60,775 nucleotides of DNA from a virus (IMGVR_UViG_3300009702_000028:1-60775); one strand, 5' to 3'; positions 7,612 through 34,035 are shown, counted from the stretch's first letter. Numbers and translations: made by a program. The notes: generated from the letters alone by a model not told the origin.

Positions 7612-7631
7612 GTGTAATTGCGGGGATAGAG

Positions 7632-8540: not shown

Positions 8541-8581
8541 AGATCGCTAGTAATGATCTGATCTGGATAGGAGATAAAGCA

Positions 8582-9550: not shown

Positions 9551-9588
9551 CTACGGTTGTTCTTCGTTTGGACTGATTCAATACCTAC

Positions 9589-10760: not shown

Positions 10761-11346
10761 GCAGGTATCGACAGATCAGATAAAGCCTTACCCACATAAT
10801 CCACGTATTATTACGGAGGAGGCCATTACTCAGGTAGCAAATAGCATCCGAGAGTTTGGTTGGCGTCAGCCCATCGTAAAAGATAAGAATATGGTGGTGA
10901 TTGCAGGACATACTAGGTTAGAGGCAGCTAAAGTATTGGGACTAGCAACAGTACCTGTTCATGTTGCAGATCTTTCAGAGCATAGAGTCCGGGCATATCG
11001 CTTAGCAGATAACAAAACTGCTGAAACTACTGATTGGGAAGAGGATCTTTTGGTTCAAGAGATTGAGGCGTTGATGGATGCGCAGGAGATTGATCTGGCC
11101 GGATTAGGTTTTGTTGAGGATGAGATCAATAGTTTAGTTGAGGATATTTATACTCCTTCTATACCAGCTACTATGACTATCTCAAATTCTGCTACTGGGA
11201 CGTCTGATGTAAATAGTTCTGATATAGAAAAGACTAAGGAAAAATTGGAGACTCAGTATGCAGAAGGATCTAAACAAGATCTCATCGACTTTACCTGCCC
11301 ACATTGTGGGGAAACGTACTCTGTTAACAAAACGATACTCTCTTAG
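10750..11346 (+). CDS. ParB/Srx-domain protein
   Basis: IKPYPHNPR...SIREFGWRQPIV...VIAGHTRLEAA...YRLADNK; C-terminal CPHC. Confidence 0.88.
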   Translation: METKQVSTDQIKPYPHNPRIITEEAITQVANSIREFGWRQPIVKDKNMVVIAGHTRLEAAKVLGLATVPVHVADLSEHRVRAYRLADNKTAETTDWEEDLLVQEIEALMDAQEIDLAGLGFVEDEINSLVEDIYTPSIPATMTISNSATGTSDVNSSDIEKTKEKLETQYAEGSKQDLIDFTCPHCGETYSVNKTILS

Positions 11347-12139
11347 TGAACTAGCGGACTCTATCAAGGCTAATACTTGGACGTTCGCCAAAACGATGCC
11401 ACACATCCCTCATGAATATGCGGTGAGGAAAAAGTGGATTGAGGTCCATGGTATTACCTTCACCAAGTTTGTAAAGCATATCCGTCAGTATGGAAATCTG
11501 TTGAAGTGGGGGAAGCATCCCCCCAAGCCTTATTGGAATCTTAATGGCTATAAATATTGGTGTCTGTTTGCTAGTGATGAAGAGACTACGATTATCAACC
11601 GGGCTGAGGTTGAAGACGAGCATCCATATGACTTCGTAGCAGACGATTACGATACCTTTTTTAATACTCCGGAAGCTCAGGTTGAGAATGATCGAGTAAT
11701 GAAAGCCATTGGCTATAAGGATGGGGAAGTTCTAGATATAGGGTGCGGGACTGGGCTATTCCTTGATTACAATCCTATCAATACTTATTTGGGGATTGAT
11801 CCTAGCCGAAGGATGTTGGAGAAATTAAAAGAACATCACAATTATGCAGAGTTTATCTGCACTCCTTTTGAATCATTCGGTACTAGTAAGAAGTTCGATA
11901 TCATCGTGTGCCTATTTGGGTCTCTGAACTATATTGACTTAGGATATATTCAGAGGATACCTAGACTTTTAGTCCCAGGTGGGCAATACCATGTAATGGT
12001 GGCATCAGAGGACTATATACCTATTACTCATAAAAAATTTGGTATAGAAGTTGAGTTCTATCATCATCCTGTGGATGTCTTACCGGGGACAATAGAGCAG
12101 GTAACGGAGTATTACTATCTCATTAGTGGAAAATCATGA
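11258..12139 (+). CDS. class I SAM-dependent methyltransferase with an extra N-terminal domain (start uncertain)
   Basis: VLDIGCGTG, GIDPS..ML, FDIIVCLFG; N-terminal WTFAKTMPHIPHEY...YKYW...IINRA domain. Confidence 0.8.
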   Translation: MQKDLNKISSTLPAHIVGKRTLLTKRYSLSELADSIKANTWTFAKTMPHIPHEYAVRKKWIEVHGITFTKFVKHIRQYGNLLKWGKHPPKPYWNLNGYKYWCLFASDEETTIINRAEVEDEHPYDFVADDYDTFFNTPEAQVENDRVMKAIGYKDGEVLDIGCGTGLFLDYNPINTYLGIDPSRRMLEKLKEHHNYAEFICTPFESFGTSKKFDIIVCLFGSLNYIDLGYIQRIPRLLVPGGQYHVMVASEDYIPITHKKFGIEVEFYHHPVDVLPGTIEQVTEYYYLISGKS

Positions 12140-12681
12140 GCACGACTATGCAGGTATGCGACATCATGAAGCTACCTAATGATGCAGCGGTAGGATGTGA
12201 TATGACGTTCACCGATCCTCCGTGGGAACAGGGTTTAGTTAAGATGTTCGAGACCCTAATGTTCAAGGCAGGTTATGAGCGTCCAGGAAATAATATAGAT
12301 GATCTGTTACATCGTCTATTCATCCTGGCTCCAGATGGGTATCCATGTTTCGTAGACTATTCGGTGAAGGGAGCACAGCGAGTAGCTAGAATTGGGAGAG
12401 AGCACGGTTTTGAGCTTTCTGGTGTGGTTCTGTTGGAGCAGGCTAATAGTAAACCTTATGCTTCGATCCAGTTTAATACCGATTTTTCTAATGAGGGAGA
12501 TCTGTCGGGATGGGGCCTGATTCGTGCTGTGCTTAGGTATCACAAGCCCAATAAGGTATTCGAACCGTTCGCTGGACTTGGTGTATTAGCAAGGCAGTGC
12601 ATAGCTCTGGGAATAGATGTCGTTGCGTCGGAGATGAATCCGAAGCGAGCAGAGAGAGCCTTTAAGGCGTTGAAGCTATGA
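12136..12681 (+). CDS. compact DNA-methyltransferase-like protein (motif IV before motif I)
   Basis: FTDPPW near the N-terminus and VFEPFAGLG...ASEMNP.R near the C-terminus. Confidence 0.7.
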   Translation: MSTTMQVCDIMKLPNDAAVGCDMTFTDPPWEQGLVKMFETLMFKAGYERPGNNIDDLLHRLFILAPDGYPCFVDYSVKGAQRVARIGREHGFELSGVVLLEQANSKPYASIQFNTDFSNEGDLSGWGLIRAVLRYHKPNKVFEPFAGLGVLARQCIALGIDVVASEMNPKRAERAFKALKL

Positions 12682-13799
12682 AGTTCTATCTCAAAGAGAA
12701 TGTATTGGAAGCTGCTCTAAGACGTATTCGATGGTTATTTGATGAGTTCGAACATATTGTAGTGGATTTTTCAGGAGGGAAGTATTCCACTGTAGTGATG
12801 AACCTTGCTTTACAGGTGGCGGAAGAGAAAAACCGGTTACCCCTATCGGTAATGTTCTTAGATCAAGAGGCCGAATGGCAGTCTGTTATTGATTATGTGC
12901 GGAGGGCCATGAAGGACCCACGAATTGATTCAATGTGGCATCAGTGTCCACTACGTATCTCCAATGGTACCTCTAAGGAAGACCCATGGTTATATTGCTG
13001 GAAGGATGGCGATGAATGGATGAGAGAGAAGGAGCCCGACACAATTCACGAGAACCCTTATGGTACGCTTACTTTAGGCGATATTTTCGGGGGTCATCTC
13101 AAATACCACTGGCCTACGGAGCCTGCTATTAGGCTTGCTGGAGTGCGTTGTGACGAATCTCCTGCTCGGTACAATGGATTAACGGCATACGAGACTTACA
13201 AGGGTGAGACGTGGGGGAAGGTAAGGAATAAAAAGATAGGGCATTACGATATGTACCCTCTGTATGACTGGTCAACCTCAGACATTTGGAAGGCAATACA
13301 TTCTTACGGATGGCCTTACTGTAGTATCTATGATTCGATGTATCAATATGGGGTACCGTTATTACACATGCGGGTATCGAATCTACATCATGAAACTGCT
13401 ATTCATTCTTTGCACTATCTTCAGGAAATAGAATCCGAGACTTGGGAGAGGTTAACACAGAGGTTGAAGGGTATTAATACGGCGAAGCATCTAGAAGGAA
13501 CTATTAATAAGCTTCCGCCATTACCTCCGATGTTTAAGGATTGGCAGGAATATAGAGATTTCCTACTAGACAAGTTGATTACGGACTCGAAACAGATAGA
13601 ATATTTTAAGAGAAAGTTCGCTTATCAGGATGATACTTATTACCCTGAAATACATGAACAGCTATGGAAGATGCATGTTTCTAGCTTACTAGTAAATGAT
13701 TATCATGGAGTAAAGATGTCTAGTTTTTCTGCATCGCATGGGCGATATAGTAAGAACAAGGGATCAAAAGGAGGATATGTTGGCGCAGCAACCTCATGA
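12678..13799 (+). CDS. PAPS-reductase-family (IbrA/YbdN-like) PP-loop protein
   Basis: FSGGK(Y)ST, FLDQEAEW, GVRCDES..R, YPLYDWSTSDIW, MRVSNLHHE. Confidence 0.88.
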   Translation: MKFYLKENVLEAALRRIRWLFDEFEHIVVDFSGGKYSTVVMNLALQVAEEKNRLPLSVMFLDQEAEWQSVIDYVRRAMKDPRIDSMWHQCPLRISNGTSKEDPWLYCWKDGDEWMREKEPDTIHENPYGTLTLGDIFGGHLKYHWPTEPAIRLAGVRCDESPARYNGLTAYETYKGETWGKVRNKKIGHYDMYPLYDWSTSDIWKAIHSYGWPYCSIYDSMYQYGVPLLHMRVSNLHHETAIHSLHYLQEIESETWERLTQRLKGINTAKHLEGTINKLPPLPPMFKDWQEYRDFLLDKLITDSKQIEYFKRKFAYQDDTYYPEIHEQLWKMHVSSLLVNDYHGVKMSSFSASHGRYSKNKGSKGGYVGAATS

Positions 13800-14349
13800 G
13801 AATCATCCCGTTAGTCATATGAAGTGGGTATCAGTAGATGAAGTTAAGGCAAACTACTATAACCCTAATGCAGTAGCTAAACAGGAGATGAAACTCCTGT
13901 ATCACTCCATTAAACATGACGGATATACCCAGCCCATTGTGACAGTATGGGATCCTACGGAGAAGAAATACATTATCGTAGACGGATTTCATCGGTACTT
14001 CACTTGTAAGTCTAATTCAGATATCTATGAGAGTACGGGAGGAAAAGTACCAATAGTAGTGATTGATAAGGATATCAATGACAGAATGGCTTCAACCATA
14101 AGACACAATCGAGCCCGAGGAAAACATTCGATTAAAGGTATGTCGAATATGGTATTAGAGATGCTAGAGAATGGGTGGGAGGATGAATCGATTTGCAATG
14201 AGCTAGGGATGGAGCCAGAAGAATTACTAAGGCTCAAACATATTACCGGATTCAGTAAGCTATTCGAAGATGTTGAATACAAGAAGTCATGGATGGCACG
14301 GCGTCAGATTCGAATAAAAAAAGCTTATGAAAAGTCTCAAATGTCTTGA
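13777..14349 (+). CDS. IbrB/YbdM-like ParB-domain protein
   Basis: YNPNAVA..EMKLLYHSIKHDGYTQPIV...IVDGFHRY...RMASTIRHNRARGKH; GGAGG RBS before ATG 13777. Confidence 0.88.
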   Translation: MLAQQPHENHPVSHMKWVSVDEVKANYYNPNAVAKQEMKLLYHSIKHDGYTQPIVTVWDPTEKKYIIVDGFHRYFTCKSNSDIYESTGGKVPIVVIDKDINDRMASTIRHNRARGKHSIKGMSNMVLEMLENGWEDESICNELGMEPEELLRLKHITGFSKLFEDVEYKKSWMARRQIRIKKAYEKSQMS

Positions 14350-14381: not shown

Positions 14382-15056
14382 ATGGGCGTTAAGATTCATA
14401 AGAAGAAACCTGAGCGTAAGCAGCCTAATGAAAAAGAGCTGGGGTACCCAATTAAACGTGATTGGAGAGCCCTTAAGCATGAATTCATTGACCGCAATTT
14501 AGATGGTGAGGTGATGACCTTACAGGACTTTGCGTCTGAGAAGGGGTTAAGACTTGGGACTTTAAGGAATCATTCGGCTCAGGAGAATTGGATACCAGAG
14601 CTTGAAGAGAAACTAGATAGAAAGAATACGAATGAACTCGTGGAGGTCAAGGAAGCTCATAAGAGGGCTATAACTAGACTGCGAGCGATGGCTATCAATG
14701 AGGAAGTATCTGTTCGTGCCCGTCATGCATCCTTTGGAAGAAAGCTTCAGACTCAGGCATATAGCAAGTTTAATAGTCTGACTGAGAAAGATATTGGGAA
14801 GATGCACATTCGAGACGTATTAGCGATGATGCGTCTTGGGATTGATATGGAGAAGAACGCTTTGGGGCTACTTGATAGGATTGCTCAAGGGCACCCCTTA
14901 ACCAACCCGCAGGAAGAGATGGCGCGCCAGACAGGGATCATCCAGGTCGATCAAGTCGATCATATTCTAGCAGATGTTCTAGATACCCTATGGCGAGGAG
15001 ATGTAGTTGAGACGACCCACCACGTCATTGAGGCTGAATCCGAAACAGTTAGCTGA
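14382..15056 (+). CDS. probable terminase small subunit
   Basis: DW..LK.EF...TLQDFASEKGL..GTLRNHSAQENW HTH, directly upstream of the large subunit. Confidence 0.65.
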   Translation: MGVKIHKKKPERKQPNEKELGYPIKRDWRALKHEFIDRNLDGEVMTLQDFASEKGLRLGTLRNHSAQENWIPELEEKLDRKNTNELVEVKEAHKRAITRLRAMAINEEVSVRARHASFGRKLQTQAYSKFNSLTEKDIGKMHIRDVLAMMRLGIDMEKNALGLLDRIAQGHPLTNPQEEMARQTGIIQVDQVDHILADVLDTLWRGDVVETTHHVIEAESETVS

Positions 15057-17751
15057 GCTTACAGCGGCCAAGCTATCCCAGTGGGACGTAAGCGAATTTC
15101 AAAAGCCATTCGTGTTAGAACGAATGCGGGAAAAGGTCGTAGGACGGCCTCACAAGTTAAGAGAGATTCCCGTAGAGATCGATGTTTTTATCGAGTCCAA
15201 GCAATATATGGATCGAAAGGAGACGATCTATCCCACTGTAATGCCTTATCTGAAAGAGATAAATACAGACGGAAAGTATGATGAGGCTGTTCTCACTGGA
15301 GGGATAGGAGCAGCTAAAGCACTTGCACTTGATACTCCAGTACCTACACCGTTTGGTTGGACAACTCTAGGAGAGGTTCGTGACGGTGATTGGATTTATG
15401 GTGAAACCGGGAAACCTGTTCGTGTCTTAAAGGCTCATCCAGTTTTATTCGGTGAATCTTGTTATCTAGTAGAAATGAATACTGGAGAGACGTTTACAGC
15501 TTCTGGGGACCATCTTTGGTATGTGCATACTAAAGGGGACAGAGCTAATTATGGTGGGCGTCATGGACGGGTTAGGGCAACGACAGATCTAAACGTAAAA
15601 GATGCCAACGCAATACGTATAGCAGGGCCGTTGCAAGGCCAGTATGTAAGCAGTCTAGGTATCGATCCCTATACATTAGGGGTCTGGTTAGGGGACGGCA
15701 GTAATGATTCAGCAAGAGTTTGTATCAGTGATGGGGTGTCTAAAACGTTACGTAAGTTGGGGTTGTTAGATAACAAGCATATTCCCAGAATATTGTTTAG
15801 GGCATCTATAACACAGAGAATAGCCTTATTACAGGGGCTTATGGATTCTGATGGGGCATGTGATTACCGCACAGGTCGATGTTCGTTTACTAACGTCAAT
15901 AAACAGTTGGCTGAGGACGTTTTAGAATTAGTGAGGGGGCTAGGGTGGCGACCTTCGATTAAGAAATTAGACGCTAGACTAAATACTCAATTTATATGTA
16001 ACGGGTGGAAGATCTCGTGGATTACTCGTTATGAATTTCCTGTATTCCGGTTATTTCATAAGTTATCACGTCAAGGGATTAGGGCTAAGAGGAGAAAAAC
16101 TAGTCACTCTATGTGGCACATAATCAAGCGGATTACTCCTGTAATATCAGTTCCGGTGAGGTGTTTGACGGTAGATAATCCCACATCGTTATATTTGGTG
16201 GGGGAGACTCTTGTACCGACTCACAATACAACTATTGCGCTCTATTCGACTGCTTATCAGCTTTATCGTCTAAGCCTCTATAACAACCCTCACGCAGAGT
16301 TCAACCTTGATCAAGCTTCGGAGATTGTCTTCATATTTCAATCCCTCAATGCAACTGCGGCGAAGCAAGTAGATTTCACTCGATTTCGGGAGATGATAGA
16401 ACAATCTCCATATTTCAAAAACAGGTTTCCTCCGGATAAGAACATCATGAGCAAGCTTGTATTTTCTAATCGAATTGAGGTTCAACCTGTTAGTGGATCT
16501 GAAACTGCTGCTATTGGTCAGAACGTTATTGGAGGAGTAATTGACGAGCTGAACTATATGGCAGTAATCGAGAACAGTTCAAAATCTATGGATAAGGGGA
16601 TCTATGACCAAGCGGTTGAGCTGTATAACTCCATTGCACGTCGGCGTAAATCTCGATTTATGATGCGGGGAAATCTACCAGGACTACTTTGTTTGGTGTC
16701 GTCTAAAAGGTATCCAGGACAGTTTACTGATATGAAGGAGGAGGAGGCGAGAACAGATCCCAAGATATTTATCTATGACAAGCGTACTTGGGATATCAGG
16801 CCAGAAGCATATGGGGGGCAGACGTTTCCAGTATTTATTGGGGATGATGCTAGACGACCCAGACTACTTCAGCAGGGTGAAAGGATTCACGCTAAAGATC
16901 GTGAACTGGTAATGCAGATCCCGATTGAACATAAGATTGAGTTTGAGAAGGATATTATTAATGCGTTACGTGAAGTGGCGGGGGTTTCAACATTGGCGAA
17001 GTCTCCCTATATCGTAATGACAGATAAGATCGGGGAGGGGATGCGAGGGGGGAATGTATTCACGGCCGAGTTTGCAGATTTTGAACGGTATAAATTGGGG
17101 ATCTCAAAGGGATGGGCTAATCCTGATGCTCTTAGGTTTGCTCATGTGGACCTTGGAGTCACTTCTGATAATGCGGGTATAGCTATTGGACATGTGAGTG
17201 GTTTTAAGAAGATTCAGAGGACTGAGGGGCATTATGAGGTAATGCCGGAGATTACTATTGACGGGTGCTTGGCAGTACCTCCACCTCCGAGTGGAGAGAT
17301 CAATTTCGAGAAGGTACGTGATATTTTTTATATCATTCGAGACCAGCTTGAGATCCCACTGAAATGGATTACGTATGACTCTTTTCAGTCGGTAGATTCT
17401 CTTCAATTGTTACGAAGTAGAGGGTTTGTAACAGGTACTCAATCTATGGATAAAACTCGCTATGCTTATGATTTGATGAAGGGAGCACTCTATCAAGATA
17501 GACTAATACTGCCTTATCATGAGAAACTGCGACGTGAATTAGCTAGCTTAGAGGATGACCCTGAAACTGGAAAAGTAGATCATCCACCCCATGGATCGAA
17601 GGATATAGCTGATGCTATTGCTGGGGTAGTATACGGGCTCACTATGAGAAGAGAGATTTGGACTGCTTGGGGAGTGAGCCCAGAATTGATACCTTCGTGG
17701 TTACGGGATTTAGGGCAGGCTGATAAGAGACTAGATGAGGTGACAGCGTGA
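15007..17751 (+). CDS. terL: terminase large subunit containing an intein
   Basis: Walker A LTGGIGAAK|TT split by the intein; Walker B GVIDE; nuclease HVDLG...TYDSFQS...DHPPHGSKDIADA. Confidence 0.9.
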   Translation: MRRPTTSLRLNPKQLAELTAAKLSQWDVSEFQKPFVLERMREKVVGRPHKLREIPVEIDVFIESKQYMDRKETIYPTVMPYLKEINTDGKYDEAVLTGGIGAAKALALDTPVPTPFGWTTLGEVRDGDWIYGETGKPVRVLKAHPVLFGESCYLVEMNTGETFTASGDHLWYVHTKGDRANYGGRHGRVRATTDLNVKDANAIRIAGPLQGQYVSSLGIDPYTLGVWLGDGSNDSARVCISDGVSKTLRKLGLLDNKHIPRILFRASITQRIALLQGLMDSDGACDYRTGRCSFTNVNKQLAEDVLELVRGLGWRPSIKKLDARLNTQFICNGWKISWITRYEFPVFRLFHKLSRQGIRAKRRKTSHSMWHIIKRITPVISVPVRCLTVDNPTSLYLVGETLVPTHNTTIALYSTAYQLYRLSLYNNPHAEFNLDQASEIVFIFQSLNATAAKQVDFTRFREMIEQSPYFKNRFPPDKNIMSKLVFSNRIEVQPVSGSETAAIGQNVIGGVIDELNYMAVIENSSKSMDKGIYDQAVELYNSIARRRKSRFMMRGNLPGLLCLVSSKRYPGQFTDMKEEEARTDPKIFIYDKRTWDIRPEAYGGQTFPVFIGDDARRPRLLQQGERIHAKDRELVMQIPIEHKIEFEKDIINALREVAGVSTLAKSPYIVMTDKIGEGMRGGNVFTAEFADFERYKLGISKGWANPDALRFAHVDLGVTSDNAGIAIGHVSGFKKIQRTEGHYEVMPEITIDGCLAVPPPPSGEINFEKVRDIFYIIRDQLEIPLKWITYDSFQSVDSLQLLRSRGFVTGTQSMDKTRYAYDLMKGALYQDRLILPYHEKLRRELASLEDDPETGKVDHPPHGSKDIADAIAGVVYGLTMRREIWTAWGVSPELIPSWLRDLGQADKRLDEVTA
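15319..16227 (+). mobile_element. class 3 (Ala1, WCT) intein with LAGLIDADG endonuclease, 303 aa
   Basis: Starts ALALDTPVPTP; block B ASGDHLW; block F VRCLTVD; ends PTHN followed by Thr; LAGLIDADG motifs LGVWLGDG and LQGLMDSDG. Confidence 0.92.
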
Positions 17752-20507: not shown

Positions 20508-20560
20508 TTGACAAAACTCAGGGTTAGTCCTAAAGTTAGAAGCATCACAACACGGAGGGA
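20508..20560 (+). promoter_or_regulatory. promoter TTGACAAAACT-TAAAGT with an A-tract UP element and ACACGGAGGGA leader
   Basis: 17-bp spacer; poly-A tract upstream. Confidence 0.75.
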
Positions 20561-20565
20561 TTGAG

Positions 20566-22362
20566 ATGACACAGCAAATTTATATTTTCGGCAGCGGCTC
20601 AGCAGAGGGCAACGCCACGATGACCGAGCTTCTAGGCGGCAAGGGTGCGAACCTAGCCGAGATGTCCAGCTTGAGTCTGCCCGTCCCTTATGGACTGACG
20701 ATTACCACCGAGGTTTGTAATCATTACCTCGGCGGGAAGATCGACATGGCGTGCTTCTACGAGGATCTGGTGAAGCCCGAGCTGGACGCGATTCGCGCCA
20801 AGTTTGACCACCCGATCATCTTCAGCGTGCGCAGCGGTGCCAGAGTCTCGATGCCTGGCATGATGGATACCATCTTAAACGTCGGTATTCCAAGCGCAGG
20901 CTGGGATGCCCTTAATGAGCATCTTGGATTTGATGTGGCGCAAGATTGCTACACGCGGGGTCGTGAGATGTTCAAGGGCATCGTGGGCTCTGAGATGCCT
21001 GCTGATCCGGATGACCAGTTCATTGCTTGCATCGCGGCAGTGTTCGAGTCCTGGAACAGTGACCGTGCGATGCACTACCGCAAGATGAATGGATACCCCG
21101 AAACGTGGGGCACGGCGGTCACAATTCAAATGATGGTCTTCGGTAATGCGAGTGACCAGTCTGCAACAGGCGTCCTCTTCACTCGGGACCCGGCCACGGG
21201 TGAAAATCGAGTAACTGGTGAGTATCTCATCAATGCACAAGGTGAGGATGTGGTAGCAGGGACCGCTACCCCAATGCCTCTGGATGAAGCCGAGGGTCAG
21301 GGATGGCACACTGAGCTGATGAACATTTGCCAGACGCTTGAGTACGAGTATCACGACATGATGGACATCGAGTTTACTGTTGAGAACGGTAAGCTCTGGA
21401 TCCTCCAATGCCGTAAAGGGAAGCGGTCAGCGAAGGCAGCATTCCAGATTGCAGCAGACATGCTAGAAGAGAAGCTGATCACCAAGAGTGAAGTTCGGGA
21501 GCGTCTATCAGGACAACAATACGAAGCTTTGACCGTCTCCAAGGTTGATGAAAAACATTCTCCAGCTCCAGTTACTTCCGGTATAGCGGGGGGTGGTTCA
21601 GCGGTTCAGGGTGTAGCCGTATTATCCAGTGAGGCAGCGGTTGCTTCTAAAGTACCCTGCATCCTGGTAACGGCAGAGACGACGCCGAACGATATCAAAG
21701 GTATGGAAGCTGCCGAAGGTATCTTGACACAAACCGGTGGCCTGACTTGCCATGCGGCAGTCGTCGCACGAGGTATGGATAGGACATGTGTGGTGGGATG
21801 TAAAGATTTGTTCACAGTAGGGATCATTGAGGGAGTTACTCTAGTCACGATTGATGGTGCTACAGGTAATGTTTGGATTGGGGATGAGGTAGTCATTGAG
21901 GAAGGAGCACGTACAAAGGTGGCTGACAAGTTGATGCAGATGGTCAGTGATAAGGGGTCAAAATGCACGGTTGAGAATTTCAGACTCATCTCTTGGACCT
22001 ATAGGTTCGTTCGAGGAACCTTGCCCAAAAAGTTACGGGCAAATTGGTATCAGGTTTTGGACTGCACTCGATTCCCATTTGAGGATCAGATGGATGATGC
22101 AGAGTTTGAATCCATGATTGGACTGACTAAGGTACCGACTTGGGCGGACATGCTTCAGGGTATCGTCGATATGAAAGCTCAAACTCCGAAGGCTAAACTC
22201 ATAGTCCGAGTTGAGCCTAACAGGGTTGATAAGGCTCAGGCTATTCTCCAAGATGCTGCTCAGGTAATCTCTTCTGAGATTACCGAGCGTACCTGGGACT
22301 ATTATCCCAATACCAACATCCTGCCGAAGGCTCAGGCGGCATACAAACTATTCGAGGCATAG
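20566..22362 (+). CDS. PPDK-derived dikinase-like protein: ATP-grasp and phospho-His swivel domains, no pyruvate-binding barrel
   Basis: LLGGKGANLAEM, SVRSGARVSMPGMMDTILN, QMMVFGN, NAQGEDVVAG, DIEFTVENGKLWILQCR, GGLTCHAAVVARG; then ~150 aa unlike the PPDK barrel. Confidence 0.88.
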   Translation: MTQQIYIFGSGSAEGNATMTELLGGKGANLAEMSSLSLPVPYGLTITTEVCNHYLGGKIDMACFYEDLVKPELDAIRAKFDHPIIFSVRSGARVSMPGMMDTILNVGIPSAGWDALNEHLGFDVAQDCYTRGREMFKGIVGSEMPADPDDQFIACIAAVFESWNSDRAMHYRKMNGYPETWGTAVTIQMMVFGNASDQSATGVLFTRDPATGENRVTGEYLINAQGEDVVAGTATPMPLDEAEGQGWHTELMNICQTLEYEYHDMMDIEFTVENGKLWILQCRKGKRSAKAAFQIAADMLEEKLITKSEVRERLSGQQYEALTVSKVDEKHSPAPVTSGIAGGGSAVQGVAVLSSEAAVASKVPCILVTAETTPNDIKGMEAAEGILTQTGGLTCHAAVVARGMDRTCVVGCKDLFTVGIIEGVTLVTIDGATGNVWIGDEVVIEEGARTKVADKLMQMVSDKGSKCTVENFRLISWTYRFVRGTLPKKLRANWYQVLDCTRFPFEDQMDDAEFESMIGLTKVPTWADMLQGIVDMKAQTPKAKLIVRVEPNRVDKAQAILQDAAQVISSEITERTWDYYPNTNILPKAQAAYKLFEA

Positions 22363-22364
22363 CC

Positions 22365-22733
22365 GTGCGTAGATGTGATAAGTGTGGTTTGGGTAATTCA
22401 ATACCATTGATTAAAGGTACAGCTATCTATCTAGTGTGTCAGCACTGTGGATATACAGAGAATGCGATTCAAGGTGGACGGCATCGACGTTGCCAACCTT
22501 TAGTTCAAGAGCTTTCGACGATGCCCGAGCAAGCCCATAGTGTGCTCATGAGATTGAGTTCAGAGCCTCAATCAGTTAGAACCCTAGGGATAGTAGCTAA
22601 GTTTAGCGAAAGGACTACACAGCTCGAATTGAAGTACCTGTATGTAGCAGGTTGGGCGGAATACAGTGAGACAGATGGGATTGAATTTTGGGTATTGAGT
22701 CATCGGGCTCAAGAACTTAGGGGTATACGATAA
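22365..22733 (+). CDS. Zn-ribbon plus winged-HTH protein
   Basis: CDKC...CQHC; PQSVRTLGIVAKFSERTTQLELKYLYVAGW. Confidence 0.6.
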   Translation: MRRCDKCGLGNSIPLIKGTAIYLVCQHCGYTENAIQGGRHRRCQPLVQELSTMPEQAHSVLMRLSSEPQSVRTLGIVAKFSERTTQLELKYLYVAGWAEYSETDGIEFWVLSHRAQELRGIR

Positions 22734-23020
22734 TGGGATTGGTATTAGCGAGAGAGCCAGGTCAGGATGTGTATGTTGATGATACACGCGTCATTGTTAC
22801 AAGGATTCTTGGTCCTTATAAATACGAGGTTGAGGTGAGGGGACAAAATTTGAATTCACGTTACATCATCACTGATCGTGAGAGTACAGAGATACTCAAG
22901 AATGTGATGTTGTCTGCGGGGTTGGACGGTAGTCCTGAGTTAGCTAAGCTACACTTCGAATGCAGTCGGAGTATTATTATCAAGAGAGGTGAGATCCATG
23001 AAACTTACTACAATGGCTAG
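22733..23020 (+). CDS. CsrA/RsmA-like RNA-binding protein with an internal insertion
   Basis: N-terminal LVLAREPGQDVYV and C-terminal AKLHFECSRSIIIKRGEI resemble CsrA LILTRRVGETLMI and VRIGVNAPKEVSVHREEI. Confidence 0.6.
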   Translation: MGLVLAREPGQDVYVDDTRVIVTRILGPYKYEVEVRGQNLNSRYIITDRESTEILKNVMLSAGLDGSPELAKLHFECSRSIIIKRGEIHETYYNG

Positions 23021-23294
23021 GGACGAAGCTGCGGATCTAATGCCAGAGATGAGTGAGGCAGATATTTTGCAACTAGTTGCACGTTCATGTCGAGTCACTC
23101 ACCCAATGGGTAACAGGAGATACCATGAATGGGTTTTTGATATAGATGAAGGATTGATTGCAGGGATTGCTAAGTTCGAACTAAGTGAGGCTGCGCAGCA
23201 CCAGGCTGCTTATGATGCAAGTACAGCCCAACCAGTGCTCATTGAAAAAAACGGAGTGATACAGTGGAATTCAGGAAACTATTCAGCAGCCTAA
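22998..23294 (+). CDS. hypothetical protein
   Basis: GAGGT RBS; contains a palindrome copy. Confidence 0.55.
   Translation: MKLTTMARDEAADLMPEMSEADILQLVARSCRVTHPMGNRRYHEWVFDIDEGLIAGIAKFELSEAAQHQAAYDASTAQPVLIEKNGVIQWNSGNYSAA
23068..23081. repeat. palindrome TGCAACTAGTTGCA
   Basis: Exact copy inside a CDS. Confidence 0.85.
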
Positions 23295-23778
23295 CTAGCG
23301 CGTTCAGGTTTACGACTTCAGATGTACCACCCAGTGAAATCGGAGGCGTAGATGAGAAATCAATCGGTAAGGGATTTATTGATTTCAAGTTCAATGGGCA
23401 TAACCTTCGGTTGTATGGGGGTCTTTATCGAGACAAGCCAGAAGACATCCCAGGGATTAAGATGGCGGTGGAGATCGATGCTCCTTATGTCATACGATGT
23501 GACATCGCGGACTTTTCCACGCCTCATCCGGATAGCATGCGGCTGGCATTGCATCAATTACTACATGGTACCAGGGAGACATATTACGTAGGTTGCATGG
23601 GGGTATAGGGCGTACAGGCTTGTTCTTAGCTTGCTGGACTAAGTTGGTCAACGAGGCAAATAGGAGACCCGATATTGATCCTATAGCTTATGTCCGCAAG
23701 GCGTACTATAACCATGCAGTTGAGACAGAAGAACAACGTAATTTTGTTGCTGGTCTGGAAGTGCGTGATCTTTTGTGA
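23264..23778 (+). pseudogene. CX5R (dual-specificity/tyrosine) phosphatase split by a frameshift in a G5 run
   Basis: IADFSTP...YYVGCMG then, in the -1 frame, GIGRTGLFLAC...DPIAYVRKAY...AVETEEQ; one extra G at 23599-23603 restores CMGGIGR. Confidence 0.8.
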
Positions 23779-23806
23779 CTCATTGAAAAAAAGATGTTTG
23801 ATAGAC

Positions 23807-23869
23807 TTGACAAAACTAATTCAATGACTATAATCACAATCAGTTAGAGAAAAGATCCACACGGAGGGA
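23807..23869 (+). promoter_or_regulatory. promoter TTGACAAAACT-TATAAT plus ACACGGAGGGA leader
   Basis: Consensus -35 and -10 boxes, 16-bp spacer. Confidence 0.8.
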
Positions 23870-23875
23870 TTAAGG

Positions 23876-24940
23876 ATGAACACACTTAGATACCATCTAG
23901 ATCGTGCAGTCTTCCAGAAGAGGGATATGGGGCACGTCCCAGTCGGGACAGTTGCTAAGAGCCTGTGTGCTGAGGTAATTACAGGGATGGTAGCGCCTGA
24001 GCGGGAGGCCATTAGGTTCTATCTTCTGAATCATGCTCTGGCTGATATTCGCTTGAAGTATGCGTTGGATGAGCCTTTGGATCAACAGCCCAATGAGGTT
24101 GTTCGGCATATTGTTCGCTCGATGAATGAGATTTCCATCCGGTTGTTCTACTACTTAATACTCATCTGTGTGCGGGAGTCCCGACATATTAAGATGACTC
24201 AGAAGTACAAGAACGCGGTGAAGAAGTTTGGCCCCTATCGGGAGTGGAATCACTCGTTCAATGATTACGGTGAGGGGGGTGGTGCTAAAAAGGCTGTCGA
24301 TGCGGTGAAGTACCACGCGCCTGACATGAACATGCGTGACTTTACTCAGGCCCTGGTCACAACCTTCTACAAAGGGGTGTTCAACGTGAGTTACGGTGGG
24401 AGGGCATGGGGAGCAGTTGCCGATGTCTTACGAGACTTCGTACACGGTACTATCAGTGCTGAGGCCATGGTAGATACTGGATGGACGCTATGCCACAACA
24501 ACGGCCCAATTTTTAACAAGGGCATGTATTACACGCAGTATACCAAGAGCATCTACATGATTTTGGATGTACAGCGGGGGGGTCAGATTCCACATTTAGT
24601 GTCCGAGTACGTGAACTACGGGGTTGCTCATACAGGATTTGAGTCCGGGGTTGAGGAAGATTTTTACTTTCTATCTTCTGTTGCAGGGTGGCTTGATAAC
24701 AGGTATGTCGATTGGTACGAAGTTGAGGCCCTGGGCGCGTTGCATAGTTACAATGTTAAGAAAAAGGAACAGATCAAGAAGTATGGGGATGAGTCTGAAT
24801 CAGCCAAGAAAGCTGCTGAAGCTTATACTCTCAAGAAGCTTCAGGATGAAGCAGCGGCAATAAAGTACAAAAAGGAATGGTTTGAAGTAGGGCCTAACAA
24901 TAATGTCAAGAAAATTCATCCGGTGCGGGAAGCAGGTTAA
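23876..24940 (+). CDS. uncharacterised 354-aa protein
   Basis: Own promoter; motif-like segments ICVRESRH, SYGGRAWG and LCHNNGPIFNKG. Confidence 0.75.
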   Translation: MNTLRYHLDRAVFQKRDMGHVPVGTVAKSLCAEVITGMVAPEREAIRFYLLNHALADIRLKYALDEPLDQQPNEVVRHIVRSMNEISIRLFYYLILICVRESRHIKMTQKYKNAVKKFGPYREWNHSFNDYGEGGGAKKAVDAVKYHAPDMNMRDFTQALVTTFYKGVFNVSYGGRAWGAVADVLRDFVHGTISAEAMVDTGWTLCHNNGPIFNKGMYYTQYTKSIYMILDVQRGGQIPHLVSEYVNYGVAHTGFESGVEEDFYFLSSVAGWLDNRYVDWYEVEALGALHSYNVKKKEQIKKYGDESESAKKAAEAYTLKKLQDEAAAIKYKKEWFEVGPNNNVKKIHPVREAG

Positions 24941-25638
24941 TGGCTAAACAACATAAGCAAACTAAGAAGTACAAGAGGTGTTGGGAATCCCATCAACACC
25001 TGAAGTTTGAAGCTTATGGGAAGTCTATCGAGATTGCGGGGGGTACTTGTTATAGCGGCGGTCACGGAGAGAGCTACGATATTGAGGTGGCTTTGGACAG
25101 GGGTGCCGCAGTAGACATTAGAGCATTTCCATGGAATCATAAAATGGGATTGTTCATTGAATTCCCAATCACTGATGGTAGAGCCCCAGCTGATGTCGAG
25201 GAGTTTCATAAGATGGTCGTGTGGCTCACTTCTCGTCTAAGAAAGGGTAAGACATTGCATATAGGATGCATTGGCGGACATGGGCGTACAGGAACTCTTC
25301 TGGCAGCACTTTATGCGCACATGACTAAGGACTCTAAGGCGATCACTTATGTACGGGAGAACTATTGCCCTAAGTCAGTAGAAAGTGCTGAGCAGGTTGA
25401 CTTTCTAGCGAAGCATTACGGCTGTGACATGGTGAAAGGTAGTACGACCTACACGAAGTCTAAGGTGACTAGTGGGTGGCAGAAGTACTGTATTCAAAGG
25501 TCAATATATGACAGTTACACTTCACCGTGGGAACAATCTCAATGGTTAGGGAAAACGAATGATGGATTCTATCTGATCACACCAGTTGAGATAGAGGGCT
25601 GTATTCTTGGATCGAATACAGTAACAAAACTAACTTGA
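24940..25638 (+). CDS. CX5R dual-specificity/tyrosine phosphatase
   Basis: FPITDGRAP; LHIGCIGGHGRTGT; AITYVRENY...SVESAEQ. Confidence 0.88.
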   Translation: MAKQHKQTKKYKRCWESHQHLKFEAYGKSIEIAGGTCYSGGHGESYDIEVALDRGAAVDIRAFPWNHKMGLFIEFPITDGRAPADVEEFHKMVVWLTSRLRKGKTLHIGCIGGHGRTGTLLAALYAHMTKDSKAITYVRENYCPKSVESAEQVDFLAKHYGCDMVKGSTTYTKSKVTSGWQKYCIQRSIYDSYTSPWEQSQWLGKTNDGFYLITPVEIEGCILGSNTVTKLT

Positions 25639-25681
25639 CAAAACTTTCTTAGCTTCTATAATCAGCTTATACATGGAGGGA
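25635..25681 (+). promoter_or_regulatory. promoter TTGACAAAACT-TATAAT plus ACATGGAGGGA leader
   Basis: Consensus boxes, 16-bp spacer. Confidence 0.8.
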
Positions 25682-25686
25682 ATGAA

Positions 25687-26091
25687 ATGAGTGAACTTAG
25701 TGAAATGAAGACCAAGCAGCCAGTGGCTCCGACGATTCCTGAGACGGCTCCGGTACCCCTAGCTAAAGCTACCCAGCTTTATCAGAAGGTGAAGGGCACC
25801 AGTATTAGTTCGGTGTATCACTGTATTGGTATAGGTCCGAAGTTGAAGGCTGCATGTCGAATCAATGGCAATGGGGTGAGTGTCAGAGTCGAAGGGGATG
25901 TGATAGCTCTAAAGCCAGTACTCGAAGAGGTTGGCTTTGATATCAAGAATGAATCTTACGCATCGTTCCATGCTTCAGCGGACACAGTGCTACTGCAGCG
26001 TAAAGTGGTGGGGGCAGCCTTGATGCCGTTGGCAGGGTTGTTCGAAACACCTTTGCCTGACCTTAGTGTGATCGAGGGGAAAGGCGAGTGA
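25687..26091 (+). CDS. hypothetical protein
   Basis: Strong promoter and RBS. Confidence 0.7.
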   Translation: MSELSEMKTKQPVAPTIPETAPVPLAKATQLYQKVKGTSISSVYHCIGIGPKLKAACRINGNGVSVRVEGDVIALKPVLEEVGFDIKNESYASFHASADTVLLQRKVVGAALMPLAGLFETPLPDLSVIEGKGE

Positions 26092-26291: not shown

Positions 26292-26800
26292 TTACAGATC
26301 TAGGATTGGTTACCGTAGCGGACCTTATGGAGTTCCCGTTGGAAATTAAGGTGGGTAAGGAAGGGAAGGTCACTACTGTTCGTGGGGCTCAGCGGATGAA
26401 GGTTAAGGGTACGTTGTTAAGTTTTAAGGTGGAGGCAGTCGATTGTTTCCATACGATTGAGCCAGGGAATATTGTGGGAATAACTCGGAATTTTGGGGTA
26501 ATTTTTCGAATTGCACCACGGTGTGGGTTAGCAGTTATCGTGACTCCCAATTTTGAATACGCCATGCTGTTGGATCTAGGTAGTATAAAACATGGGTATT
26601 GTCGGGAAGGGCTTCATAAGACGGTACAACGATGGAAAGATCTTAAGATTATAAAGAGAGTATGGCGTAAGGATCGAGATGACGACATTTGGTCAGTAGT
26701 CACTGATTGGAACATCACGATACTTAAGGAGAATTCAGATGGGAGCAATCAAGCTGTGGACGGGCGCGAAGGACAGCACTCTTCAGGAATCAGTGCTTAA
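26288..26800 (+). CDS. hypothetical protein
   Basis: ATGA coupling. Confidence 0.6.
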   Translation: MITDLGLVTVADLMEFPLEIKVGKEGKVTTVRGAQRMKVKGTLLSFKVEAVDCFHTIEPGNIVGITRNFGVIFRIAPRCGLAVIVTPNFEYAMLLDLGSIKHGYCREGLHKTVQRWKDLKIIKRVWRKDRDDDIWSVVTDWNITILKENSDGSNQAVDGREGQHSSGISA

Positions 26801-29072
26801 GGTCATCGACCCTGAGTTTATTACTGGGAAATTGGGAGATACTGATGTACTCCCAGACTTCGGTAATGATGTAGTTGTTCTCGCCATGGGGGTTGAACCA
26901 GTCAAGGTACTTCAGAAGCATGGGCTGATTCCGAAGAACAGGACGATTACCAGCTTACGACAGAAACCAATAAAGGTGAATGGGGCTCAGATCCTTATCA
27001 GTTATCACCCTAGCATTATTTATAATGATGTATCGAAGGCTCCAGAGATAGCATGGGATGCGGCTCTCACGAAACGTTTGGCGTTAACAGGGAGCATGGA
27101 TCCAGAGACAGGAGACTATCTATTTGTTGATAGTTTTGAGGCCCTTGAAGATTATCTCAATCTTCAGACTACCCCTGTACCGCTAGCAGCAGACCTCGAA
27201 ACTCTTGGCTTAGATCCTTATGCAGAAGATGCCTGGATCGTTAGTATTCAGTTCACCCATGCCAAAGGTGAGGCGATGGTCATGAGGTTTGCTGGTAAGG
27301 AGGATCCTAAATATCCCGCAATTAATATAGAGAGAAGAGATCAGATTGATCGGATTCTTAATCATCCAATGGCTAAAGTTCGCGGGGCTAACTTCAAATT
27401 TGATCTACTTTGGTTATGGGAGCACTGGAATATAGAGTGCTCTAATTTCACTATGGATACTACTCTGGTGGGATCACTTCTTAATGAGAATAGATCAAAT
27501 AGTTTAGAGACTCACGCTAAGTTATTTACAGAGATGGGAGGGTATGACTCATATCTCAATTCTCACTATGACAAAGGTCGGATGGACTTAGTTCCAGATG
27601 ATGACTTTCTTACTTATTCAGGTGGGGATACCGATGCCTGTTATCAGGTCAGCAATAGGATGGTGGCTGAACTGGCTAGTATTCCCAAGTTGGGGAAATT
27701 CTATTTACGTTTACTTCATCCAGCTATGTTAGCGTTTCATGGCATGGAGAAGGTGGGAATCTGTATTGATACCGATGAGATGAATAACCTGGGGAAGGAA
27801 CTTACCCGGCACATGAAGGAAATCACCGAGAGGGCACGTAGAATATTGCCCCGCAGGCTTTATAACAAGCACAAGGACGCGTTTGTGCTTACTCGCAGTA
27901 GTATCACAAAGGATTATCTTTTCAGTCCTTTGGGGCTCAAGCTGAAGCCAGAGATAGTCACACCTAAGTCTGGACAACCGAGTACAGCCAATAGCCACCT
28001 TCAGATGTTTTTAGGGCATCCAAAAGCGGGGGAGTGGGTTCAATTACTCAATGATTATAATTCGACTAGGAAGACTTACGGTACTTACGTGAAAGGATTC
28101 ATTAAGCATCTGCGTACTGACGGTAGGTTTCATCCCACAGCGATGTTATTCAAGGGATTGTATGAACAGGGGGAGAGCGAATCGGGGACAGTAACAGGGC
28201 GTACAGCATTTCGTGATCCTGCAATACAGACTTTACCTAAGCATACCAAGTGGGCGAAGGCATTGAGGAAAGCCTATATAGCTCCACCTGGTTACAAAAT
28301 TGTTAGTTTGGACTATTCCCAAGGGGAATTACGTATTGCTGCTTGTCTAGCGAATGAAGATTCCATGATCTCAGCATATAAGGAGGGAATAGATCTCCAT
28401 ATGCTTACTGGAGCAGCTTTGGCAGGGTGGAAGCAAGAAGAGATATTGAAACTCAAGGCTAGCGAGGATGAAAGTGATCAGGATCTTTATGAGGATATTC
28501 GGCAGAAAGGAAAGTCAGCCAACTTTGGATTAATTTATGGGATGTCAGGTACCGGGTATGAGAACTATGCATTCGCGGTATATGGAGTGCAACTAGTTGC
28601 AGGTGAAGGTCAGATACAGAAGGATTTATTTTTTAAAAAGTATCCAAAGCTAATATCCTGGCATTCTCGTTATATCAATTATGCACACGAGCATAAATAT
28701 GTGACTTCTCCGTTAGGTAGATTGCGCAGACTTCCAATGATTGATTCATATGATTCTGCTCTGTCTAGCCAGGCTGAACGTCAGGCCATTAATTCTCCAG
28801 TTCAATCTACCCTTTCGGATCTAGCACTGCTGGCGTTGGGGGAGTTTAGGAAGCGGTATGGACAACCTATTGACTGTCAGCCTTCGATGATGGTTCATGA
28901 CCAGCTTATGTTTTATGTGAAGGAAGACCAATTAGATGTTTGGATCATCAGATTAAAGGAAGTGATGGAGGATCTATCCTTAGATCAATTTGGGTGGGAG
29001 CCCCAATTACCATTTCCAGTGGACTATGAGATAGGACCAAACCTCGCTGAGATGAAGAAGGTGAAATCATGA
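26739..29072 (+). CDS. polA: family A DNA polymerase with 3'-5' exonuclease and a partial UDG-like N-terminal domain
   Basis: Exo I DLET; GTVTGR; motif A DYSQGELR; motif B RQKGKSANFGLIYG; RQAINSPVQS; motif C VHDQ. Confidence 0.93.
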   Translation: MGAIKLWTGAKDSTLQESVLKVIDPEFITGKLGDTDVLPDFGNDVVVLAMGVEPVKVLQKHGLIPKNRTITSLRQKPIKVNGAQILISYHPSIIYNDVSKAPEIAWDAALTKRLALTGSMDPETGDYLFVDSFEALEDYLNLQTTPVPLAADLETLGLDPYAEDAWIVSIQFTHAKGEAMVMRFAGKEDPKYPAINIERRDQIDRILNHPMAKVRGANFKFDLLWLWEHWNIECSNFTMDTTLVGSLLNENRSNSLETHAKLFTEMGGYDSYLNSHYDKGRMDLVPDDDFLTYSGGDTDACYQVSNRMVAELASIPKLGKFYLRLLHPAMLAFHGMEKVGICIDTDEMNNLGKELTRHMKEITERARRILPRRLYNKHKDAFVLTRSSITKDYLFSPLGLKLKPEIVTPKSGQPSTANSHLQMFLGHPKAGEWVQLLNDYNSTRKTYGTYVKGFIKHLRTDGRFHPTAMLFKGLYEQGESESGTVTGRTAFRDPAIQTLPKHTKWAKALRKAYIAPPGYKIVSLDYSQGELRIAACLANEDSMISAYKEGIDLHMLTGAALAGWKQEEILKLKASEDESDQDLYEDIRQKGKSANFGLIYGMSGTGYENYAFAVYGVQLVAGEGQIQKDLFFKKYPKLISWHSRYINYAHEHKYVTSPLGRLRRLPMIDSYDSALSSQAERQAINSPVQSTLSDLALLALGEFRKRYGQPIDCQPSMMVHDQLMFYVKEDQLDVWIIRLKEVMEDLSLDQFGWEPQLPFPVDYEIGPNLAEMKKVKS
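28588..28601. repeat. palindrome TGCAACTAGTTGCA
   Basis: Exact copy inside the polymerase gene. Confidence 0.85.
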
Positions 29073-33384: not shown

Positions 33385-34035
33385 ATGAAACAGCGTGGGT
33401 TTACTCTTACTGAACTACTAATAGTAACTACTATTTCGGGGATCATTGCTGCAATAGCGACCCCGAATTTCAATCGCTTCATTCGAACAGAGTCTCTAGT
33501 GTCTGATACGAACGCCTTAGTCTCTGCGTTCTTTCTGGCCCGAACTGAAGCAATCAAAAGAAATACCCGAGTCACGATCTGTGCGTCCTCAGATGGGGTA
33601 ACGTGTGGGGATAGTGCTCAGTGGAATCACGGGTATATCGTTTTCACTGATGGTGCTGCGGGGGTGGGGGGTGTCTTGGCAGATGGTATCGTCAATGGCG
33701 CTGACACTATCTTGCATATAGAGCGAGCCACAGGTACCACAATCGTTCCCAGGGCTCGTACTCTTCCAAGTAATAGCGCAGACAACCTCGTCAGTTACGT
33801 AAGCTTCAAAGGTACACGAGGGGCGATGCGTACGTTACCCGATCCAATAACTAAGCAATCAATCCCGTTGCGAGGAGCGTTGAAGATCTGTGATCCCGAG
33901 TTGGGAGTGGAGGCTATACGTGTTCTAAGTATCGATCCTTTGGGGAGAGCCAGCGCTAGTGCTAGGGATGCAGCACGTAGAGCAGCGGATGAGACGATTC
34001 AATACGATGGGCAGTCCGGGGTGTCGTGCAACTAG
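33385..34035 (+). CDS. fimT: GspH/FimT-family type IV minor pilin
   Basis: Prepilin site MKQRG/FTLTELLI, hydrophobic helix, ARTEAIKRNTRVTICAS.DG.TC...W..GYIVF.D, C-terminal Cys pair. Confidence 0.9.
   Translation: MKQRGFTLTELLIVTTISGIIAAIATPNFNRFIRTESLVSDTNALVSAFFLARTEAIKRNTRVTICASSDGVTCGDSAQWNHGYIVFTDGAAGVGGVLADGIVNGADTILHIERATGTTIVPRARTLPSNSADNLVSYVSFKGTRGAMRTLPDPITKQSIPLRGALKICDPELGVEAIRVLSIDPLGRASASARDAARRAADETIQYDGQSGVSCN

Follow-up and report, generated by a model that had tools for sequence, protein, structure and literature searches.

A conserved phage module around a split, barrel-less dikinase, with u354 as its candidate acceptor-site protein

The IMG/VR viral contig IMGVR_UViG_3300009702_000028 (60,775 bp, completeness estimate 67%; the whole stretch is referred to here as the window) carries, between positions 20508 and 25638, a gene derived from pyruvate phosphate dikinase (PPDK), two phosphatase genes of the protein tyrosine phosphatase (PTP) type and the gene for a 354-aa protein, which we call u354. 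From the sequence alone, this region had been predicted to be a phage phosphotransfer system in which a repurposed PPDK and two CX5R phosphatases act on an acceptor outside central metabolism. Our analysis makes it fairly probable that the region is a phosphotransfer module, conserved among phages, in which the dikinase is split and barrel-less and u354 provides the acceptor site. The principal genes and domains are as follows.

20566-22362, + strand: dikinase gene, 598 aa, PPDK-derived ATP-grasp plus phospho-His swivel
20566..21570, + strand: ATP-grasp nucleotide-binding domain, residues ~1-335; Pfam PPDK_N (PF01326), E 3.2e-50
21571..21900, + strand: phospho-histidine swivel domain, residues ~336-445; Pfam PEP-utilizers (PF00391), E 1.3e-21 over residues 364-434
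21901..22362, + strand: dikinase tail, residues 446-598; unconserved, predicted helical, no TIM barrel
23264..23778, + strand: PTP1, a Cys-phosphatase split over open reading frames (ORFs) 23264-23608 and 23593-23778
23876..24940, + strand: u354, 354 aa, phrog_20946; proposed acceptor-site domain of the split dikinase
24940..25638, + strand: PTP2, a Cys-phosphatase, 232 aa, with D79 and C110-X5-R116; start codon overlapping the stop codon of u354
26739..29072, + strand: PolA, a family A DNA polymerase; conserved downstream neighbour, DNA polymerase I in the annotation of the syntenic phages

The dikinase and the missing PPDK barrel

The first 445 residues of the dikinase contain both parts of the phosphate-loading half of PPDK i.e. 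the ATP-grasp domain and the swivel domain with its catalytic histidine, as originally predicted. This histidine, His396, is encoded at 21751-21753 within the motif GGLTCHAAVVARG, and the residues around it read GGLTCH396AAVVARG. T394, H396 and the residues of the ATP-grasp core were invariant in an alignment of 59 distinct phage homologues, which indicates that the loading half of the enzyme is under strong selection; identity among the dikinases across divergent phages is 33-44%. A further alignment showed that a ~48-residue helical insert of other phage homologues is deleted from the ATP-grasp domain of the window protein. Solved PPDK chains match the dikinase over chain residues 9-513 (E 8e-102), with an alignment that ends at query residue 445. 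Having an ATP-grasp domain and a phospho-His swivel in one chain, the protein is, as judged from its sequence, a member of the His-swivel dikinase superfamily. When compared with the NCBIfam models, it scored 462.9 against TIGR01828, well below the cut-off of 843.45, and 398.1 against PRK05878, a 534-position short-PPDK model with a cut-off of 456 (E 5.7e-119, model positions 21-458). Matches to the rifampin phosphotransferase (RPH), PigC and RedH models were weak (E 1e-14 to 1e-16).

Beyond residue 445 the protein was predicted to end in ~150 unrelated residues in place of the triosephosphate isomerase (TIM) barrel that binds phosphoenolpyruvate (PEP) and pyruvate, and our results bear this out. 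A Pfam scan of the dikinase found no match to PF02896, the PEP-utilizers_C barrel, nor was this family matched anywhere in the 60.8-kb contig or in any of five complete relatives (DLP3, R30Z, Summit and two uncultivated viral genomes rated 100% complete), while 14/14 control genomes were positive. The possibility that the barrel is encoded separately is thus not borne out in the contig or in these relatives. The tail is also short, with ~150 residues in the window and 129-232 residues in the split forms as a whole, compared with ~340 for the barrel. An alignment of 60 tails gave a mean identity of 17% and no invariant columns. The AlphaFold2 (AF2) model of residues 436-598 consists of helices only, with no strand, at a mean predicted local distance difference test score (pLDDT) of 63.5, which is low confidence; this model and the lack of PF02896 argue against a barrel fold in the C-terminus. 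A word search with residues ~446-598 returned no relatives beyond the dikinase itself. A relationship between the tail and u354 was considered and rejected, as an hhalign comparison of the two gave no relation. Because the barrel and the TIGR01828 cut-off both fail, the dikinase lies outside the PPDK equivalog (EC 2.7.9.1), in agreement with the original view that it is no metabolic PPDK.

u354, its fusions to the dikinase and the phosphatases

The genes of the module occur in the order dikinase, phosphatase, u354, phosphatase and then PolA. The dikinase is present in 39/40 phage records with u354, the exception being a 5.8-kb fragment. A dikinase match was found in 58 records. Nineteen of these lack u354: 16 are short or unannotated, two are of Bacillus phage G, and in the last, from phage J14, the match is weak. 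Among 80 viral loci, we took the 64 with at least 4.5 kb of downstream sequence as informative. u354 was found in 61 of these (60 by blastp, and L073, where it is fused, by hidden Markov model (HMM)), the exceptions being L071, L075 (phage G) and the fragment L081; a PTP was found in 60/64 and PolA in 55/64. When the search was begun from u354, 10/10 bacterial-genome loci contained the dikinase and the PTPs, and 7/10 contained PolA. The neighbourhood survey proposed with the original prediction therefore shows that dikinase, u354 and PTPs do co-occur.

u354, listed as an unknown in the original prediction, matched nothing in Pfam, NCBIfam, PADLOC or the PDB sequences. The family is nevertheless large, with 818 representative clusters at E <= 0.001 in an exhaustive search, the best 150 of which are 298-445 aa long. 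In an alignment of 64 sequences, 23 columns were invariant, with charged or polar residues in 13; the invariant residues include R100, E101, R103, H104, G174, G175, W178, E196, D200, H207, N208, N214, K215, D231 and Q233. By this pattern u354 looks like an enzyme domain. The AF2 model is all-alpha and confident (pLDDT 91.9, pTM 0.87), and a fold search with it matched no known fold. The median isoelectric point (pI) of the family is 8.45. A scan of 185,579 species genomes found u354 at only 10 loci, all with the phage gene order, and the family therefore looks restricted to phages and prophages.

Three of the viral loci (L062, L073 and L076) encode a longer dikinase, of 780-865 aa, with a u354-like part behind the swivel. 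The u354 HMM matched this part with E-values of 1e-23, 6e-20 and 1e-18, respectively, and all three retain the motifs E-x-R-H, GYGG-x-x-W and D..F.L.HNNG..F.K. When the L062 domain was used as a database query it retrieved 20 proteins of 593-1109 aa, of which 19 matched both PF01326 and PF00391 and all 20 matched the u354 HMM (E 1e-27 to 7e-15). GG-x-x-W and H-N-[NG]-G are present in 20/20 of these fused proteins and E-x-R-H in 14/20; the u354 domain is C-terminal to the T-[SC]-H-A-A motif in all 14 in which that motif was found by pattern. In the domain order of the fused proteins, u354 fills the place that the barrel has in PPDK. A profile search (A2) detected no fused forms among proteins of at least 780 aa; this is weak evidence, and the reverse search from a fused protein succeeded.

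Five of the fused proteins (P0162, P0164, P0166, P0167 and P0168, 867-1109 aa) have an additional C-terminal part with the motif [IV]D[PV]Q[NH]DF. A Walker-A-like GSGKS motif is present in all of these except P0168, and Pfam gave only a weak DUF87 match (E 0.0019) in the extra parts. Contigs of 650 kb and 6.7 Mb carry some of these longer fusions, which may therefore be cellular.

For the split form, we predicted the complex between dikinase residues 335-598 (swivel and tail) and u354 in three runs. The interface score ipSAE was 0.74, 0.62 and 0.42 (median 0.62), compared with 0.01 for the best control; the same mark was met by 58/80 solved complexes and 2/110 mismatched pairs. Contact agreement between the runs was at least 61%, and the partner pLDDT was at least 76. 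The contacts with the lowest error were those of the His loop (residues 390-396) with N52, H53, D200, T204 and R234-G236 of u354, i.e. with the invariant patch. As u354 has no relative in the PDB, a memorised complex is excluded. The predicted complex supports binding of the His396 loop to the u354 patch, although it does not show it. Tail residues 507-520 also contact u354 in the predicted complex, so the tail may be a docking element for u354. The original prediction had treated the 354-aa protein as a bystander; the fusions and the docking prediction instead point to an acceptor domain, probably the third domain that the dikinase itself lacks.

Two CX5R phosphatases had also been predicted, and one of these is intact. 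PTP2 has the P-loop C110-IGGHG-R116, with D79 as the likely general-acid Asp upstream of it. Within the DSP-PTPase families of Pfam it matches Tc-R-P (E 6.9e-6, 27.0 bits against a cut-off of 27) and PTP-SAK (E 2.7e-5); it also matches solved archaeal PTPs (E 2.9e-8) and phrog_17568 (E 1.1e-26). By motif and family, PTP2 is a member of the Cys-based PTP/dual-specificity phosphatase superfamily. PTP1, in contrast, is not a single ORF as had been supposed: its frame is broken at a run of five G (~23592-23596), and the CX5R motif CMGGIGR is read only after a -1 shift. The two pieces match phrog_17568 at successive profile positions (11-95 and 95-144). A contig that was independently assembled from the probable source run has the same five G at a depth of ~9.6, so the frameshift may be genuine, and an intact PTP1 may not be needed in this genome. 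Programmed frameshifting was also considered; the site, as read, is no standard X XXY YYZ slippery heptamer. The ORF directly after each of the three fused dikinases is also of the PTP family (PTP2-type in L062 and L073, whereas the top matches in L076 are of the shorter PTP1-type), which suggests that the minimal set is dikinase, u354 and one PTP. From their adjacency, the phosphatases would act on the product of the dikinase.

The PTP family carries the label 'thymidylate synthase' in PHROGs (phrog_17568) and in GenBank (DLP3 gp141), and in the covered part of the paper on Vibrio phage J26 the gene at the PTP-equivalent position is named 'pyruvate decarboxylase' (PMC12038007). Both labels look like mis-annotations of a Cys-phosphatase.

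Promoters, smaller genes and the phage lineage

The module also contains promoters and smaller genes, which are listed here together with the ORF between PTP2 and PolA.

20508..20536, + strand: sigma70-like promoter, TTGACA-17-TAAAGT (10/12), upstream of the dikinase gene
22365..22733, + strand: zinc-ribbon-pattern protein, 122 aa, CxxC...CxxC; lineage-specific, outside the conserved core
22733..23020, + strand: predicted CsrA-like RNA-binding protein, 95 aa, carrying an insert
22989..23294, + strand: 101-aa ORF, patchy conservation only
23807..23834, + strand: perfect sigma70 promoter, TTGACA-16-TATAAT, upstream of u354
25635..25662, + strand: perfect sigma70 promoter, TTGACA-16-TATAAT, before ORF 25687
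25687..26091, + strand: 134-aa ORF; homologues of 147-561 aa, mostly 240-330 aa, between PTP2 and PolA

The strong sigma70-type promoters that had been described are present. Perfect TTGACA-N16-TATAAT sites occur only twice in the 60.8-kb window, with 0.04 expected, and both are within the module. These two promoters have in common the extended -35 region TTGACAAAACT (23807-23817 and 25635-25645), which suggests one promoter class for the module.

The assignment of a CsrA-like protein appears right at the level of the family. The window protein alone matched Pfam CsrA (PF02599) weakly and below the cut-off (E 0.049), whereas 19/25 family members matched it, the best at 4.4e-7, and the family profile matched solved CsrA over profile positions 65-89 (E 0.002). 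There are 28 distinct homologous ORFs of up to 135 aa in the viral loci. The 122-aa protein had been described as a Zn-binding winged helix-turn-helix protein; the CxxC...CxxC pattern stands but is all that is visible of that description; its zinc-finger matches in Pfam are below threshold only. No homologues of it were found in 90 related loci at E 1e-4. For the family of the 134-aa ORF there was no match in Pfam, NCBIfam or PADLOC, and no usable match in the Atlas.

The window belongs to a lineage of siphophages of 80-100 kb that includes Stenotrophomonas phages DLP3, DLP5 and Summit, Vibrio phages VHS1, SIO-2 and J26, Rhizobium phage TM16 and Rhodobacter phage RcZahn. Isolates place the module in phages of Vibrio, Stenotrophomonas, Rhizobium and Rhodobacter, and further contigs with it are assigned to Azospirillum, Roseococcus, Burkholderiaceae, Helicobacteraceae and Acidobacteriaceae. 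GC skew is above 0 along the whole window, and all genes with an assigned function are on the + strand.

Several other genes of the window were recorded in passing. The 914-aa ORF at 15007-17751 is the large terminase. Its two matches to Summit TerL, at 15109-15318 and 16195-17697, are separated by an insert of ~290 residues that contains a LAGLIDADG domain and is probably an intein or a homing-endonuclease insertion. An ORF at 33385-34035 has a type IV pilin N-methylation motif and a GspH pseudopilin domain (E 4.5e-8 and 2e-10). The early region encodes a Dam-type adenine methyltransferase (9853-10467) and a second S-adenosylmethionine-dependent methyltransferase (11258-12139). Another possible DNA-modification system is the pair at 12678-14349, in which the gene for a PAPS-reductase plus DUF3440 protein precedes that for a ParB-N protein; this pair would compete with the dikinase module as the explanation of the restriction resistance of relatives.

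Proposed mechanism, acceptor and relation to known systems

We propose that the module works in two steps. In the first, ATP would load His396 with its beta-phosphate, leaving AMP and either Pi or PPi; u354 would supply the missing second active site in trans, with the swivel docking on its invariant polar patch and passing the phosphate to an acceptor bound there. In the second, the flanking CX5R phosphatases would strip the phosphate from the product or from a later intermediate. Judging from gene context, the acceptor would most likely be a nucleotide or a DNA- or RNA-linked group, i.e. the chemistry would be linked to replication and not to carbon metabolism. Context likewise suggests that expression is probably controlled by the CsrA-like protein and the strong sigma70 promoters.

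As a class, a nucleotide or nucleic acid is our leading guess for the acceptor, with roughly an even chance; a protein is unlikely, a defence-related small molecule slightly less likely than a protein, and pyruvate/PEP and glycans, even taken together, less likely again. The leading guess comes from the fixed position of the module directly upstream of PolA, from the basic pI of the u354 family and from the restriction resistance of DLP3 DNA described below. DNA ligase is encoded within 7 kb of the module in 15/80 loci and RtcB in 2/80 (L083, 5574-6695, directly upstream of the dikinase; L062, 13989-15173, 4.7 kb downstream), and DnaB and primase adjoin L076. In its most specific form, in which the all-alpha protein is a catalytic domain that acts on DNA, a base or a deoxynucleotide the two Cys-phosphatases complete the pathway and the product is a new replication-coupled DNA modification or its precursor, this guess is tentative and unlikely to hold. 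Known hypermodification of 5-hydroxymethyldeoxyuridine and 5-hydroxymethyldeoxycytidine uses a thymidylate-synthase-like hydroxymethylase, the P-loop kinase 5-HMUDK and aGPT-Pplase, and none of these families was matched by Pfam in 30 window ORFs (contig 67% complete) or in 64 u354 relatives. If true, the nucleic-acid dikinase reading would explain why the DNA of DLP3 is resistant to all 15 of the 15 restriction enzymes used, the modification being left undetermined in the covered part of that paper (PMC7326821). The covered parts of the V-YDF132 and LV6 papers report no restriction digests. Another phage named DLP3 (PMC13326640, 5-hydroxycytosine arabinosylation) was set aside, because its gene numbers differ and the covered part of the paper makes no mention of Stenotrophomonas.

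The alternatives differ mainly in the acceptor. The published one, in which the gene is a metabolic PPDK that interconverts pyruvate and PEP to raise the energy metabolism of the host and its neighbours are unrelated, is highly improbable. In the covered part of the J26 paper the gene was read in this way, with a four-stranded TIM barrel (PMC12038007), yet the PPDK alignment of that paper itself spans only 489/691 positions, and the shorter tail in the window, with no predicted strand and no PF02896, lends the four-stranded barrel no support. The TIGR01828 score is far under the cut-off, PF02896 is missing from the protein and from 6/6 genomes searched, and the tail has less than half the barrel's length and not one residue that is invariant across 60 sequences. 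The metabolic reading also leaves unexplained why the dikinase is so strictly linked to u354, the PTPs and PolA. The label of a PPDK "auxiliary metabolic gene" is thus not supported. It is equally hard to credit that the module is a dikinase for a glucan or other polysaccharide with matching phosphatases, tied to carbon-storage control through the CsrA-like protein: a PPDK-family dikinase, two dual-specificity-type Cys phosphatases and a CsrA-like protein fit such a system in combination, but the genes showed neither a carbohydrate-binding module nor a glycoside hydrolase at the Pfam and NCBIfam thresholds used, and the module lies in a replication block beside PolA. Early host takeover or counter-defence had been suggested in the original prediction and found no specific support. 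A module that phosphorylates or rebuilds an immune nucleotide messenger or an NAD-related molecule is very unlikely. The strong host-type promoters suggest early expression, PTP-NADK matches exist although they are weak (E 0.004), and the related phage J26 encodes NMNAT according to the covered part of its paper (PMC12038007); however, the genes form a syntenic core block across very divergent phages and not a variable accessory gene, no PADLOC family was matched, and no paper was found that ties the module to defence.

Of the readings with a macromolecular acceptor, a phosphorelay to protein is unlikely, though less so than the preceding ones. HPr is the partner of enzyme I of the PTS, and PDRP regulates PPDK. 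By analogy u354 would be an HPr-like phospho-acceptor or adaptor, or a PDRP-like regulator of Thr394 and His396, and the phosphatases would reset protein phosphorylation, perhaps on host targets. The predicted interface is indeed centred on T394, H396 and u354 residues that include the near-invariant H53, u354 has the invariant histidines H104 and H207, and among solved structures PTP2 is closest to protein tyrosine phosphatases. On the other hand, u354 takes the position of the catalytic barrel in 20/20 fused proteins, 12 of which, at 800 aa or less, have little room for another domain; fused u354 is unlikely to be a mere substrate or regulator because the fused enzymes would then be without an acceptor site. 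The many charged residues that are invariant yet lie away from the predicted interface (R100, E101, R103, K215 and D231) also suit a ligand pocket better than a docking surface. Nucleic-acid end healing, a special case of the nucleic-acid acceptor, is less likely than the protein phosphorelay. Here the dikinase with u354 would phosphorylate a 5'-OH or 3'-OH, the phosphatases would remove 3' or 2',3'-cyclic phosphates and a nearby ligase would complete the repair of tRNA or DNA cut by host defences, like T4 Pnkp and ligase. The ligase and RtcB genes near some loci are consistent with this, as are the tRNA genes of Summit and the match of PTP2 to PTP-SAK, a family described in predicted RNA-repair proteins. 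Against it, the window has no match to ligase or RtcB (contig 67% complete), the flanks of 63/80 loci contain no ligase, no domain for binding nucleic-acid ends was identified, and known polynucleotide kinases are P-loop enzymes.

Several results weigh against our own interpretation of a split dikinase with a nucleotide or nucleic-acid acceptor. The role of u354 is a prediction throughout; one of the three complex runs reached just 0.42, our own alignments were fed into the prediction so that its calibration is only approximate, and T394 is among the best-supported contacts, which makes it possible that u354 is a substrate or regulator of the His/Thr loop. The viral contig L069 (44 kb) encodes, within 3693-9553, a full PPDK (866 aa) including the PF02896 barrel (E 7e-23) and, 2.3 kb upstream of it with ORFs of 292 and 471 aa between, a separate u354-like gene (HMM E 6e-14). 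u354 is thus not always a substitute for the barrel, and the layout of L069 may represent either an ancestral state or an alternative one. With 59 distinct dikinase sequences among them, the 80 viral loci are in part redundant. The link between kinase and phosphatases is one of gene adjacency only, and PTP1 is broken in the window genome. No thymidylate-synthase-like or other base-modifying gene was found beside the module, and dCTP deaminase was rejected as a regular partner (6/90 loci, not in the window). The resistance of DLP3 could also be due to other candidate DNA modifiers of these phages: the window encodes Dam, a second methyltransferase and PAPS-reductase plus ParB, and DLP3 and Summit carry a glycosyltransferase.

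Comparison with known systems places the module among enzymes that combine the ATP-grasp and His-swivel domains with a new acceptor part, as first suggested; the two domains were confirmed and the barrel is gone. PPDK itself (Clostridium symbiosum 1KBL/1DIK, Flaveria 5JVL) has the same ATP-grasp and swivel with the T-x-H motif, whereas the phage form lacks the TIM barrel, has the ~48-residue deletion in the ATP-grasp domain and apparently has its acceptor site in a separate protein of another fold. The short 'PPDK' proteins of PRK05878, presumably barrel-less actinobacterial proteins such as M. tuberculosis Rv1127c, are alike in architecture, although the phage dikinase is under the cut-off of that model. 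The same two-step chemistry, from ATP beta-phosphate to His to acceptor, is expected as in rifampin phosphotransferase, PigC/RedH and PEP synthase. However, the acceptor domains of RPH/PigC-type dikinases are unrelated to u354, the phage acceptor is mostly a separate gene, and the domain order of RPH differs in that its swivel is at the C-terminus (PDB 5fbs, 5hv1).

Phenylphosphate synthase is a multi-subunit His-swivel dikinase with a new acceptor part. Plant glucan-water dikinase (GWD) with SEX4 and LSF2, which together carry out a phosphorylation-dephosphorylation cycle on one substrate, resembles the module in having a PPDK-family dikinase and two CX5R dual-specificity-type phosphatases; it differs in that the phage module is in a replication context and has no carbohydrate-binding module that we could find. 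T4 Pnkp, a P-loop kinase fused to a HAD phosphatase, is alike in that a phage encodes kinase and phosphatase together near ligases, but it has no homology with any protein of the module. In the literature covered, no paper was found that ties the PPDK-like genes of phages to u354, places them in a split dikinase or connects them with DNA modification. What is new is a split dikinase, in some cases fused, with an acceptor domain that lacks any known relative.

These results correct the annotation of dozens of phage genomes and several papers in which the gene is named a PPDK "auxiliary metabolic gene"; as the protein cannot bind pyruvate or PEP in the known way, claims of phage-driven glycolysis that rest on this gene are unsafe. 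In place of that label, the analysis defines a candidate three-part enzyme system, consisting of a phosphate loader, an acceptor domain of new fold and Cys-phosphatases, which belongs to the conserved gene set of a large phage lineage. As the module lies beside the replicative polymerase and the DNA of at least one member is heavily protected, it is a candidate for a new route of nucleotide or DNA modification. At minimum, it would extend the His-swivel dikinase mechanism to a new class of substrate.

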